From NCBI GenBank assembly GCA_041446735.1, contig JBGOEP010000003.1, positions 2,117 through 66,116 on the forward strand: a stretch of DNA of 64,000 bases. Direction: 5' to 3'. Positions 56,681 to 60,321 of the stretch are shown in pieces; the first letter of the stretch is position 1, and every line of letters begins with the position of its first letter. The notes beneath the pieces are model-generated. The model worked only from the letters and a program-made list of their open reading frames with translations, was not told the origin of the DNA and searched no databases. The translations under genes and the position numbers were made by a program. This stretch comes from Candidatus Fervidibacter sp. (GTDB taxonomy: Bacteria > Armatimonadota > Fervidibacteria > Fervidibacterales > Fervidibacteraceae).

Positions 56681-57961
56681 TCAATCCATCGTCAACTCCA
56701 ACCCGTTGACAATGATGCGGTCGCCTGCTTTTGCTCCCGCTTTTCGGATGGCTTTCCAGATGCCGTGCCGAAGGAGGCGCTCCTTGATTTCCGCTAAGGC
56801 TTGCGGGTGCGACGCATTGATGAGCCGTGTGAGCCGCTCCACTTCGCCCCCTTGCACGAACCAAGTCTCTTCGTCCAATCGCTCAATTGTCAAGGGCGCT
56901 TCGGTTCGCTTAGGTGGGGCGACGATGACTTCCTCGGACGCTTCGGGCAAAGGTGCCGTCGGCTGCATCGCCTTCACCAACTCTGCCATCCGATAGACGA
57001 GGGGTTCAATCCCTTCACCTGTCAAGGCGGAGATAGCGAACACTTCATAACCTCGTTGACGCCAATAGGGCAAGCAGCGCCGCAAGTTTTCGTGGGCATT
57101 GGGCAAATCCATTTTGTTGGCGACGACGATTTGGGGCTTTTTCGCCAGTTCAGGGCTGTAAAGGCGCAACTCTTCGTTGATGGTCTCAAAGTCGCAGATA
57201 GGGTCGCGCCCTTCTACGGCAGCGATGTCCACCATGTGCAAAAGGAGGGAAGTCCGTTCGGCGTGGCGCAAAAACTGATGCCCCAACCCAACGCCTTTAT
57301 GGGCGCCCTCAATCAAGCCGGGCAAATCCGCCACGACGAAACTGAAATTGTCCACCCGCACCGTCCCTAAGTTGGGCACGAGGGTCGTGAAAGGGTAGTC
57401 GGCGATTTTGGGGCGGGCAGCACTGATGCGGCTGATCAGCGTGGATTTGCCGACATTGGGATAGCCGATGATGCCCACATCAGCCAGCAACTTCAACTCC
57501 AACCGCAAAGTCCGCTCCTCGCCCGGTTCGCCCAACTCGGCGAAGACAGGCGTTTGGCGGGTGGGTGTCGCAAAGGCAGCGTTGCCCCGTCCGCCCCGAC
57601 CGCCCCGTGCCACGATGACCCTTTGTCCCGCCTTCACCAAATCGGCAATCAACTCACCCGTTTCGGCATCGTAAACAACCGTCCCGACAGGAACGCGGAT
57701 GACCAAATCTTTGCCATCCGCCCCGTGCTTGTTGCTGCCTTGTCCGTGTTGACCGTTCTCGGCTTTGTAAGTCCGCTGCAGGTGCAAGTCCACGAGGGTT
57801 TTCACCGACGGGTCGGCGAGCAAGATGACATGCCCGCCCCGACCGCCATCGCCCCCCGCAGGACCGCCACGCGGGACGAACTTTTCCCGCCGAAAAGCCA
57901 CACACCCATTGCCCCCATTCCCTGCCTTGACATGAATGACTGCCTCGTCCACAAAATGCAT
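56681..57961 (-). CDS. obgE: GTPase ObgE/CgtA
   Basis: [53 protein letters not shown], plus the C-terminal OCT domain. Confidence 0.98.
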
Positions 57962-58025
57962 CGCCAAGTCACCTCGGAGGCGAGACAGAAAGATGCGGGC
58001 AAACGATGGCGAAGGGTCGGCAAGG

Positions 58026-58427
58026 TCACCGCTGCAGCGTCAGGGAGTTGTCCGAGAAGTTGAAGGTGATCAGCGAGAAGCGCTGCAAGTAACTCAACCC
58101 GACCAAGCCATCCAACCCCACTTGGGGCGGAAGGCTTAGCGCCAAGCAATCCACATTTGCCTCTTCCGCCCCGATGGCGCCGAACCGTTCCAGCGTCACC
58201 TGCGGGGCGGTGAGGGCTTGGGCGTGGATGCCGTAAATCGTCATCGGGGGCGCTGCCGTCAGGTCGTAGCCCAGCGTCAACAAAATTTCGGGCTTGATGA
58301 TCACGAACGAAGAGCCAGTGTCCACCGCCATCCGCAGGACACCCATCCCATTCCCGCGCCAGACAAAGCACTGGACGACCAACAACGGCGCCGTCGCTAA
58401 AAAGGGCACTCGCACTATTTGGCGCAT
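58026..58427 (-). CDS. Retropepsin-like (clan AA) aspartyl protease
   Basis: RMAVDTGSS catalytic motif and DGLVGLSYL motif; 133 aa. Confidence 0.85.
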
Positions 58428-58648
58428 AGCACGAAAATCCCCTTGATTTCGCCCGTCCAGACGATGTAAAAGCGTGTCGGGCGGGTCTTCAAGAGCACCT
58501 CGTCTATGACGCTTCGGTCGGGCGAGTGCGCCAGAAGGCGCCCCCGCAACGGCGACCCTTGTTCGTCCAGTTCCACGATCTCAAAGAGCAGCCATTCGTC
58601 GGGATACTGCTTTTCGGTTTCAGGGATGAGCACGATGTCTTCGGGCAT
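58415..58648 (-). CDS. Small hypothetical protein (DUF5678-like) coupled to the aspartyl protease
   Basis: KQYPDEWLLF..GRLLAHSPDR pattern; overlaps the protease start. Confidence 0.6.
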   Translation of the reverse strand: MPEDIVLIPETEKQYPDEWLLFEIVELDEQGSPLRGRLLAHSPDRSVIDEVLLKTRPTRFYIVWTGEIKGIFVLCAK

Positions 58649-58687
58649 GGCTGTCACGCCCCTTCGCCGATTTCGGCGGCAGTTCGT

Positions 58688-58948
58688 TTAAGCCGTCGGG
58701 GCGGGCAAGACATTCACGCGCACCTTGTCGCCCTTGCGGTCATAGACGACGACGCCATCGGTCAGGGCGAACAGGGTGTAATCGTTGCCCATGCCGACAT
58801 TGCGCCCGGGCAAAAAGCGCGTCCCCCGTTGGCGGATGAGAATATGACCCGCCCGCACGAATTCACCGCCATACGCCTTGACACCCAACCGCTTGGAGCG
58901 GCTGTCGCGCCCGTTCTTGCTGGCACCGCCCGATTTCTTGTGCGCCAT
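58688..58948 (-). CDS. rpmA: 50S ribosomal protein L27
   Basis: [41 protein letters not shown]. Confidence 0.98.
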
Positions 58949-58954
58949 CGTCTC

Positions 58955-59455
58955 TCACCTCCGTCGTTCTAAGTCTAACGCTTGTGCGGGTGTCATTCGC
59001 CCGTAAGGCGTGCGGTCAAAGTCGGTGTCGTAACTGACGATGAAAACGGATTGCCCCGTTTGCGCCGCCAACTTGTTCATCGCCGCAATTTGATAGGCGT
59101 CGTCAAAGTCCAGTTGAAATGACACCGCTACATCCCGAAGGGCGGCGAACTCTTGCCCTTCCAGCCGCACGAGGCGAGGCGTCCAAGCCTGAGCGAATTC
59201 CACGAAGACATCCCACAAACCAGCGCGCCCAAGCCGAATGCCAATGGTGTGCAAGGTGAAGTCAGTTAGGAAAATCCGCTCCGACGGCACTTCGCTGAAA
59301 AAGTCGTCCACTTCCTGAGCGATCTGGTCGGGCGTAGCGCCGGCAGGTGCCCGAAAGAGTTGGCGGAACGGCTCTGGGAATTGGTAAAACCAATGCCAGA
59401 GCCAGACATTTGCGTTCAACAGATACAGAGGCGCCGCCTCAATCGCCTCGCTCAT
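58955..59455 (-). CDS. PIN domain (VapC-like) protein with first catalytic Asp replaced by Asn
   Basis: [32 protein letters not shown]. Confidence 0.8.
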
Positions 59456-59966
59456 CTTGGAACACCCGCTCCAGTTCTTCAGGTGAGAGCCTTTGCAAGA
59501 CTTCACTGACTCTGGCTCGCCACTTCAACAGCAACTCAAGCCATTGGCGTCGGCTGGGGATGCGCATCGCTTCCAAGAGGGCTTTTGCCCGTTCCATTTC
59601 GCCTTTACGGCTCAGGTGCAAGATGATGTGACCGAGGGCGATGTCGTGGTCGGTGTCGTCGGCGATTTGCCGCGCCAACTCTATCGCTTGGCTCACATCG
59701 CCCCGCCCTACCAGCGGCTTCACCACGAAGTCGGTGAAGGGATGGACGAACTTTTGATAGACGACAGCCTCGTAACGGCGCAGCAACTCAAAGGCGTCCT
59801 GTCCCTTGCCTTCCCTTGCCCACTTCTCCGCCAAATCGCCGAGGCTTTCGGCGTCCAGTTCGCCGACGATGACAAAAACCGCTTGCCCTTGCGGCAAAGG
59901 CAAGGGTTCGTCGGTCTGGATGATTTGCTCGCCCGCAACTTTGCCCTTGACGATGGTAAGGCTCAT
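59439..59966 (-). CDS. Putative antitoxin: AbrB/DUF104-like N-terminus fused to a helical repeat domain
   Basis: IVKGKV..II..DEPLPLPQGQAVFVIV followed by TPR-like helices; overlaps the PIN start. Confidence 0.55.
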   Translation of the reverse strand: MSLTIVKGKVAGEQIIQTDEPLPLPQGQAVFVIVGELDAESLGDLAEKWAREGKGQDAFELLRRYEAVVYQKFVHPFTDFVVKPLVGRGDVSQAIELARQIADDTDHDIALGHIILHLSRKGEMERAKALLEAMRIPSRRQWLELLLKWRARVSEVLQRLSPEELERVFQDERGD

Positions 59967-59982
59967 CGTGTGTCACCTCGGC

Positions 59983-60321
59983 TCAACCGCTGGGCACTTC
60001 AATGCGCTCAATTTGCAACTCAGTGAACCATTGGCGATGCCCCTTCTTGCGCATGTAGCGCTTTTTCGGCTTGAACTTGAAGACGATGATTTTCGGACCG
60101 CGCCCATGTCGGCGGACTTTGGCGATGACTTTGGCGCCGGGCACATAAGGCGTGCCGACGAGGACTTGTTCGGGCGTGCGGACCAAAAGCACGCGGTCAG
60201 TCTCAAAAGTTTCGCCCTCGGCGATTTCCAATTTCTCCACTCGCACGATCGTCCCTGGCGCAACTTCATACTGTTTTCCGCCTGTCTCAATGACGGCACG
60301 AATGGACTGGACAAGTTCCAT
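59983..60321 (-). CDS. rplU: 50S ribosomal protein L21
   Basis: [31 protein letters not shown]. Confidence 0.98.

Follow-up and report, generated by a model that had tools for sequence, protein, structure and literature searches.

Two toxin–antitoxin-like gene pairs lodged in the rplU–rpmA–obg operon of Candidatus Fervidibacter

Introduction

The bacterial operon that encodes ribosomal proteins L21 (rplU) and L27 (rpmA) and the GTPase Obg (obg, or obgE) can accommodate additional genes. In Firmicutes such as Bacillus subtilis, spo0B adjoins obg in the gap that follows rpmA, and the same gap is taken by yhbE in Escherichia coli, where the order is rplU–rpmA–yhbE–obgE. The other gap, between rplU and rpmA, holds in Firmicutes the gene for Prp (YsxB), a cysteine protease that processes L27 (PMC9405229) and is essential because the L27 of these bacteria carries a cleavable N-terminal extension. 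Here we analyse a stretch of 64,000 nucleotides from Candidatus Fervidibacter sp. (assembly GCA_041446735.1, contig JBGOEP010000003.1, positions 2,117 to 66,116; hereafter the window), a genus with a cultured hyperthermophilic member, F. sacchari, as presented in PMC11535203. Searches with the cassettes assign the window to this hot-spring genus (class Fervidibacteria, phylum Armatimonadota, the phylum for which the earlier note had proposed a synteny comparison), and the nearest genome records are metagenome-assembled genomes of Candidatus Fervidibacter. In the window both gaps are occupied by two-gene cassettes resembling toxin–antitoxin (TA) modules: geneA and a gene for a PIN-like protein lie between rplU and rpmA (cassette 1), whereas geneC and geneD, the latter encoding a retropepsin-like aspartic protease, lie between rpmA and obg (cassette 2). 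Like cassette 2, yhbE and spo0B are unrelated genes between rpmA and obg, but each stands alone, encoding a transporter and a phosphotransferase, respectively, rather than forming a TA-like pair. An earlier note on this DNA had started from the premise that rplU–rpmA–obgE is among the most conserved of bacterial operons, which overstates the case, given that yhbE, Prp and spo0B fill the very same gaps and that obg is not adjacent to rpmA in another Armatimonadota metagenome-assembled genome (MAG).

Cassette 1 invites comparison with the VapBC TA systems and with protein-only RNase P (PRORP), in which a PPR domain is combined with an NYN/PIN-like nuclease. Cassette 2 is best compared with PDC-M08, which belongs to a collection of phage defence candidates (PDC) found embedded in BREX, DISARM or type I restriction–modification (RM) operons (Payne et al., bioRxiv 10.1101/2024.01.29.577857). 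Our literature search found no paper on TA modules inside rplU–rpmA, nor on bacterial retropepsin-like TA pairs. The reading that we favour, with a probability of roughly 0.6, is that the two cassettes are accessory TA-like or defence-candidate modules which hitchhike on the operon and have no obligatory role in ribosome biogenesis.

Results and discussion

Both gaps of the operon hold a two-gene module

All seven genes are transcribed from the minus strand, in the order rplU, geneA, PIN, rpmA, geneC, geneD and obg (Table 1). Read from the sequence, the spacers measure 16 nt between rplU and geneA, 6 nt between the PIN gene and rpmA, 30–39 nt between rpmA and geneC and 58–64 nt between geneD and obg, for which ATG 57961 is the likely start, the gene calls of relatives also giving 426 aa. 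Within each cassette, the partner gene is upstream and overlaps the enzyme gene, by 17 nt in the geneA/PIN pair and by 13 nt in the geneC/geneD pair. The Shine–Dalgarno sequence of rpmA, GGAGGTGA, contains the stop codon (TGA) of the PIN gene and stands 6 nt before the rpmA start codon. The anatomy described in the earlier note, namely gene order, co-orientation, spacers of at most 64 nt and a PIN stop codon within the rpmA ribosome-binding site, is borne out by the sequence, as is its view of both inserts as two-gene TA-like modules. The rpmA product starts with MAHKKSGG and has no N-terminal extension, its residues 2–80 aligning with positions 1–79 of the Ribosomal_L27 profile.

Table 1. Features of the rplU–rpmA–obg operon region, in window coordinates
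Feature	Position	Strand	Family match or remark
Promoter-like TTGACA-16-CAAAAT, candidate operon promoter	60373..60400	-	about 50 nt upstream of rplU; consensus scan 10/12, pattern match only
rplU (ribosomal protein L21, 112 aa)	59983..60321	-	Pfam Ribosomal_L21p, E 5.8e-37
geneA (175 aa, partner of PIN protein)	59439..59966	-	no Pfam or NCBIfam family above threshold
PIN-like gene (166 aa, VapC type)	58955..59455	-	Pfam PIN weak, E 0.02; AlphaFold2 and Foldseek
rpmA (ribosomal protein L27, 86 aa)	58688..58948	-	Pfam Ribosomal_L27, E 7.7e-36
Short GC-rich hairpin, rpmA–geneC spacer	58664..58679	.	terminator-like on plus strand only; no U-run on operon strand
geneC (80 aa from GTG 58657; 77 aa from ATG 58648)	58415..58657	-	no Pfam family
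geneD (retropepsin-like aspartic protease, 133 aa)	58026..58427	-	Pfam Asp_protease_2 E 1.9e-7, gag-asp_proteas E 1.7e-6
obg (GTPase Obg, 428 aa from 57967 or 426 aa from 57961)	56681..57967	-	Pfam GTP1_OBG E 3.6e-66, MMR_HSR1, DUF1967
Segment lost in scar allele, ~905 bp	58983..59887	-	geneA codon 27 to last 8 PIN codons
Dimorphic patch 1 (~360 bp)	~59241..59601	-	geneA C-terminus and PIN N-terminus
Dimorphic patch 2 (~240 bp)	~58281..58521	-	geneC C-terminus and protease N-terminus, including DTG/DSG active-site loop

The signals in the region would fit a single transcription unit read from a candidate promoter in front of rplU. The only good promoter-like match in a consensus scan is the one upstream of rplU, with none upstream of geneA; terminator-like sites in the operon region occur at chance level (7 versus 5.8 expected), and a search of the operon against Rfam recovered no leader, riboswitch or other element at E up to 1. 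Contigs of four metatranscriptomic runs were placed on the locus; they carry no strand information. One X24 contig (58694–60036) covers the 3' end of rplU, geneA, the PIN gene and rpmA, an X26 contig (58245–59480) covers the PIN gene, rpmA, geneC and part of geneD, and a further X24 contig (57909–58669) extends over geneC and geneD into the 5' end of obg. The RNA contigs cross most gene junctions and fit co-transcription of the cassettes with the operon, with no sign of the insulation by internal promoters and terminators that had been raised as an objection.

The same seven-gene order recurs in six further loci (L081, L086, L087, L089, L102 and L107), on contigs that come from various samples and sources. 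Twenty DNA runs each contain at least 71% of the k-mers of the region, and one of them (X1) yielded a 6.7-kb contig 100% identical to the window. Loci were collected with cassette-specific queries, which replaced Obg peptide patterns as a synteny probe in GTDB after these universal patterns had retrieved only distant phyla, and also by scanning, in an unbiased manner, for an rpmA DNA pattern specific to Fervidibacter.

Loss, decay and selection of the cassettes

Wild populations offer a full series of cassette states: intact, dimorphic, frameshifted, scarred and bare. Both cassettes are intact in the window and in the six loci with the same gene order. The PIN gene of L088 is frameshifted at the edge of dimorphic patch 1, possibly through assembly chimerism, next to an intact cassette 2. 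Cassette 1 is intact in L084/L101, where the protease gene is frameshifted, and in L082/L085, where only the last 60 codons of the protease gene persist (55% identity). In L090, L103 and L104, cassette 1 has been removed by a deletion of ~905 bp, and the protease gene is frameshifted in L090 and intact in L103 and L104. Finally, L105 and L106 lack both cassettes and have a bare rplU–rpmA–obg operon with spacers of 46 nt and 120 nt. Individual communities can be mixed, as in run X7, where a minor strain without cassette 1 occurs beside a major strain that carries it.

The scar allele keeps geneA codons 1–26, the last PIN codons and the rpmA ribosome-binding site. L090, L103 and L104 share one and the same junction, which includes a 6-nt filler and is found on two diverged backgrounds; the resulting open reading frame (ORF) of 30 aa (P0102) is present in the protein library. 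The left breakpoint of the deletion falls in a hairpin with a 10-bp stem followed by TTTTTGT within the 5' part of geneA (59882–59904, minus strand, codons ~21–32), a structure that the RNA contigs cross. Because lineages lose the cassettes without disturbing the operon, an obligatory role of the cassettes in ribosome biogenesis appears improbable. The same alleles qualify the proposal of the earlier note that TA-like modules shelter inside an essential operon: the lodging itself fits the data, but the shelter is imperfect, there being clean deletions with the ribosome-binding site of rpmA left in place.

In the Obg tree, the window group, L105/L106 and L082 form approximately a trifurcation, with a very distant outgroup. 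Given this topology, both cassettes predate the split between the window group and L082 (Obg 82% identical, dS, the synonymous divergence, ~0.9), whereas the bare operon of L105/L106 is either ancestral or secondarily cleaned. Across this distance, the ratio of nonsynonymous to synonymous divergence (dN/dS) is 0.17–0.26 for geneA and 0.12–0.39 for the PIN gene, compared with ~0.07 for rpmA and 0.06–0.12 for obg. Where cassette 1 is intact, geneA and the PIN gene show purifying selection along their full length.

Cassette 1: a remodelled PIN protein and its helical partner

Close relatives of the PIN protein (74–99% identity) were found in Fervidibacter only; the next ones, at 48% identity or less, are ordinary VapC toxins, and the two canonical relatives for which the context was checked (P0008 and P0017) pair with DUF2281 antitoxins. 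The AlphaFold2 model of the PIN protein (predicted local distance difference test, pLDDT, 93) has FitB, PAE2754 and many VapCs as its best PDB matches by Foldseek; at least the top 30 matches are FitB/VapC toxins, with a probability of 1.0 and a target-normalised template modelling score of 0.6–0.78, which points to a VapC/FitB fold. The cassette resembles VapBC in several further respects, including two overlapping genes with the partner upstream, a PIN protein 48% identical to canonical VapCs, retention of three of the four acidic active-site residues (Glu48, Asp118/119 and Asp143/145), and a patchy distribution with decaying copies. Unlike VapBC, however, it has exchanged the first catalytic Asp for Asn: where canonical VapCs have the strand-1 motif LVDTNV, the PIN protein has LLNANV, and Asn14 occupies the catalytic position in every operon copy and also in L096 and L111, which lie elsewhere in genomes. 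Strand 1 is followed by an 18-residue insert with an invariant Pro-Glu, the 175-aa partner has TPR/PPR-like repeats and no known antitoxin or DNA-binding domain, and the pair, for which the consensus scan shows no promoter-like site of its own, is embedded in a ribosomal operon.

Of 80 GTDB loci surveyed for this VapC subfamily, only three with a geneA-family gene upstream and one odd case have Asn, whereas the ~75 other members have Asp; L096 adds a further combination of Asn with a geneA-type partner. Because Asn occurs with geneA-type partners in the survey, the Asn-type PIN proteins and the geneA family constitute a distinct co-inherited module, which is not tied to ribosomal operons. A VapC of canonical length from an uncultured deltaproteobacterium (L156, match at 731–1120) carries Asn as well (FLVNTNIW), with neither the insert nor a geneA-type partner. 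That the Asn is conserved down to 45% identity, in company with a geneA-type partner, is hard to put down to simple decay; either a substitute carboxylate comes from the insert, or the PIN protein is a weakened nuclease or a binding module. The Asn at the catalytic position poses the most interesting biochemical question of the locus and, together with the insert and a new TPR/PPR-like partner family that also pairs with SNase (see below), would set cassette 1 apart as an undescribed PIN subfamily.

The geneA product is predicted to consist of an N-terminal beta segment (residues ~1–35), three TPR/PPR-like helical repeats (~41–135), a long helix and a conserved acidic tail, DERGD; in its AlphaFold2 model (pLDDT 84), eight or nine helices come after three short strands, and its Foldseek matches are TPR proteins. 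In searches with the single sequence, Pfam PPR was matched at E 0.08 and TPR_19 at E 0.0035, whereas designer PPR proteins of the PDB are matched by a profile of the geneA family over all three repeats, in register (~19 bits per register, summed E 5e-17). We accordingly describe the domain as TPR/PPR-like, as judged from models and profiles, and do not claim RNA binding. A combination of PPR-like helical repeats with a PIN-like metallonuclease fold is also found in PRORP, but cassette 1 differs in consisting of two separate small proteins, in the VapC rather than NYN type of its PIN protein and in the lack of a zinc-binding linker domain; moreover, the resemblance to PPR is modest, and the geneA–PIN pair is dispensable in nature. 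A similarity of the geneA N-terminus to DUF104/AbrB-like antitoxins was considered and rejected, there being no such Pfam match even at E 10 for five family members.

Word-based searches found relatives of geneA in Fervidibacter only, whereas the full profile search added the small proteins P0052, P0053 and P0056 (173–213 aa), with the same beta segment, helical core and DERGD-like tail; weaker matches of the profile are repeats of giant STAND/TPR proteins. Several members of the family reside at loci unrelated to ribosomal genes. In L096, P0053 is followed by a PIN protein with both the Asn and the insert, the pair being located downstream of a GFO/IDH/MocA oxidoreductase gene, and an Armatimonadota MAG, SKYB71, carries an intact geneA–PIN pair standing alone at a non-ribosomal locus (L111). 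The same MAG encodes a 201-aa ORF labelled 'PIN domain-containing protein' (L097:4001–4606), in which geneA residues 1 to ~105 are fused in frame to the PIN protein from residue ~46, and which is a deletion remnant of such a module at another non-ribosomal locus. In L098:4001–5001, as well as in L099 and L100, the geneA-family protein P0172 (176 aa) is followed not by a PIN protein but by a homologue of staphylococcal nuclease (SNase); therefore, the geneA family combines with different nucleases.

A perfect 25-bp direct repeat, GAAGGAGGCGATAGGCGATGAAGCG, comprising a Shine–Dalgarno sequence, a start codon and 5 nt, flanks the geneA–PIN cassette of L096. Its copies, at 947–971 and 1932–1956, are exactly 985 bp apart, and the contig ends 4 nt past the second copy; the arrangement looks like a duplication, at insertion, of the ribosome-binding site and start codon of a downstream host gene. 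No flanking direct repeats of this kind were found in L082, L091, L098 or L111. In the window, the only shared sequence is the Shine–Dalgarno-like GAGGTGA-N6-ATG before geneA, rpmA and obg, which is not significant as an insertion footprint.

Cassette 2: a small protein and a retropepsin-like protease

The geneD product is a single-domain retropepsin-like (clan AA) protease with the motif VDTGSS, or VDSGAS in the other allele; its matches to the two Pfam families of Table 1 exceed their cut-offs, and it matches TIGR02281 below the cut-off of that model. There are many variants of the protease in Fervidibacter, beyond which identity falls to 36%, in cyanobacteria. The geneC product shares 38% identity (E 2e-13) with an 81-aa protein whose gene precedes that of a retropepsin-like protease in the cyanobacterium Tychonema. 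The pair in Tychonema (L091:2750–3411) is located inside a men operon (menaquinone/phylloquinone), between a UbiA-family (menA-like) gene and an alpha/beta-hydrolase (menH-like) gene.

Among the PADLOC models, PDC-M08B is matched by the geneD product at E 3.8e-4 and by its cyanobacterial homologue at 7.5e-12, whereas the match of the geneC product to PDC-M08A is weak (E 0.013). Cassette 2 and PDC-M08 have in common two genes in the same order, A before B, with a small A protein and a B protein of ~128 aa; they differ in that the proteins of the window score weakly and that the host operon is ribosomal rather than BREX, DISARM or RM. Considering the embedding of PDC-M08 and the pair in the men operon, this family has a record of sitting in other operons.

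An extra protease gene in the same operon brings to mind Prp. Nevertheless, a Prp-like role of geneD can be rejected, because the L27 of the window has no extension, the fold class is different (retropepsin-like aspartic rather than cysteine protease) and geneD is located after rpmA instead of before it; furthermore, the gene is broken in several lineages. None of the cassette proteins matches DUF464, the Pfam family of Prp.

The cassettes as probable accessory modules

The anatomy of the cassettes, their nearest relatives, the swapping of partners, the occurrence of homologues at unrelated loci and the repeated decay are the grounds on which we read them as accessory modules. Under this reading, two unrelated two-gene modules devoid of promoters would have lodged in the two gaps of rplU–rpmA–obg before the sampled Fervidibacter lineages diverged, and would be expressed by read-through from the operon promoter combined with translational coupling. 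Cassette 1 would be an atypical VapBC-like pair, in which the TPR/PPR-like geneA product with its DERGD tail presumably holds the remodelled PIN protein in check, and cassette 2 would pair a small protein with a homodimeric retropepsin-like protease related to PDC-M08. Intact copies would be kept by selection, most likely acting through the toxin–partner interaction or through an advantage under certain conditions, for example in phage defence. That the partners bind each other, that the proteins are toxic or have nuclease or protease activity, and that they serve in defence are all predictions from sequence.

Several observations weigh against this reading. Searches of Pfam, NCBIfam and PADLOC, including ones with the N-terminus by itself, recognize no antitoxin or DNA-binding domain in the geneA product, which is as large as the PIN protein and belongs to a cassette that matches no TA or defence model in PADLOC. 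In PIN proteins that have been studied, replacement of the first Asp by Asn serves as an inactivating mutation, as in the D7N variant of Shigella VapC (PDB 5ed0, a structure that is itself among the Foldseek matches listed for the PIN model); because this residue is Asn in every copy, the 'toxin' may not be toxic. For cassette 2, the matches of the window's own proteins to PDC-M08 are weak, and PDC-M08 is only a candidate. Some of the 'broken' copies, chiefly the frameshifted PIN gene of L088, could be assembly chimeras of co-occurring alleles, and metatranscriptome libraries and contigs can contain DNA. Finally, the persistence of cassette 1, with dN/dS ~0.2, between lineages with 82% identical Obg would also be expected of a function that benefits the host.

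If the cassettes are accessory modules, they offer a clean natural example of TA-like or defence-candidate cassettes within one of the most highly expressed housekeeping operons, and by comparing strains in the different states one can ask whether residence in an essential operon shields such modules against loss, and at what price to the host. Current views of ribosome biogenesis are unaffected; the location is moderately surprising but calls for no new principle.

Junction-centred dimorphism and the case for dedicated defence

The only strongly divergent DNA between otherwise near-identical strains coincides, in both cassettes, with the junction of the partner and enzyme genes (Table 1). Both patches are sharply bounded: nucleotide identity drops to 66–84% in patch 1 and to 73–81% in patch 2, versus 96–100% over the rest of the operon in the same strains. 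The alleles of each patch fall into two classes, which are found in all four combinations. In single hot-spring DNA samples (X10 and X17), the two alleles of patch 1 reach similar depth, and both are also represented among the RNA contigs. Inside the patches, dS is 0.4–1.0 (0.7–1.0 in patch 1), and dN/dS is ~0.23–0.25 in all but one of the four segments, that of geneC reaching 0.66. Because dN/dS never exceeds 1, the divergence looks imported by recombination; thus, the patches appear to be old alleles moved between strains rather than products of bursts of positive selection. The pattern suggests a balanced, recombining polymorphism, and its simplest reading is that the abutting ends of partner and enzyme form a co-adapted protein–protein interface.

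Old, balanced and recombining alleles centred on the partner–enzyme junction of both cassettes could also be expected if the cassettes were dedicated anti-phage (abortive-infection) systems that exploit the strong, constitutive transcription of a ribosomal operon, with the patches recording an arms race with phage triggers or inhibitors. This explanation would also accommodate the patchy presence and absence of the cassettes among close strains, the exchange of PIN for SNase as the nuclease partner and the matches of cassette 2 to PDC-M08, which cover the two components in the expected order, albeit with weak scores. However, PDC-M08 has itself not advanced beyond candidate status, cassette 1 has no PADLOC match, and there is no defence-island context at the locus. 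The dN/dS values of the patches, none of them above 1, look like recombinational import rather than positive selection, and neither the PIN protein nor the protease has relatives in the collections of plasmids (PLSDB) and viruses (IMG/VR). We therefore regard dedicated defence as unlikely, although it is the rival that fares best.

Roles tied to ribosome biogenesis and weaker alternatives

Somewhat more doubtful is the suggestion, also made in the earlier note, that the cassettes have been co-opted to link ribosome biogenesis with RNase or protease control. In such a scheme, the PIN and TPR/PPR-like proteins would form a two-subunit factor that binds or cleaves RNA and serves rRNA, tRNA or ribosome quality control, the protease pair would have L27, Obg or another assembly factor as its target, and location in the operon would set the stoichiometry relative to L21, L27 and Obg. 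The apparent co-transcription and tight translational coupling with rpmA are what would be expected of such regulators, and so is the retention of cassette 1 under purifying selection since the split of the lineages represented by the window and L082. Conservation of the Asn to 45% identity would signify a maintained, non-classical activity rather than simple decay, the repeats of geneA resemble RNA-binding PPR repeats, and Prp sets a precedent for a protease gene between rplU and rpmA (PMC9405229). Yet the PPR match is modest, and the large matches in the databases are bacterial STAND/TPR proteins; L27 lacks the pro-sequence that made Prp indispensable; and members of these module families turn up at unrelated loci, also in combination with a different nuclease. 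Above all, sister lineages have deleted cassette 1 (L090, L103 and L104) or frameshifted or truncated cassette 2 (L084, L090 and L082), and one lineage (L105/L106) has neither, which disfavours co-option and leaves it a small probability for intact copies.

A more speculative proposal, to which we attach little weight, is that cassette 1 is an undescribed two-subunit RNA-targeting enzyme. The PPR/TPR-like subunit would recognize the substrate, the VapC-fold subunit would act through a rebuilt active site, in which the Pro-Glu insert possibly supplies a carboxylate, and the L21–L27–Obg operon would tie the dose of the enzyme to ribosome synthesis, for instance for conditional cleavage of rRNA or tRNA or for ribosome quality control at 70–85 °C. 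Both cassettes may, in addition, be promoter-less 'operon-embedding' modules with an insertion mechanism of their own, which is hinted at by the 25-bp duplication of a ribosome-binding site and start codon in L096.

It is very improbable that the cassettes are dead remnants, with inert proteins and DNA kept for the signals of rpmA and obg (ribosome-binding site, coupling or mRNA structure). The overlap of the PIN stop codon with the Shine–Dalgarno sequence of rpmA, the retention of exactly that end in the deletion allele and the loss of the catalytic Asp would all be in line with such a role, but purifying selection extends along the entire geneA and PIN genes, the Asn-type PIN protein and its partner are conserved at 45% identity at other loci, and ~905 bp can be removed with the ribosome-binding site and gene of rpmA intact. 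That the arrangement is an artefact of assembly or annotation, finally, deserves practically no credence and is rejected, the same arrangement being present in many independent contigs and samples, in both DNA and RNA, which also disposes of the misassembly that the earlier note had named as a possible refutation.

Neighbourhood of the operon

Downstream of the operon, a gene of the CCA-adding enzyme/poly(A) polymerase family with an HD domain (55129–56676, plus strand) is convergent with obg, the two stop codons being 4 nt apart, and this convergent neighbour is kept in all close Fervidibacter loci.

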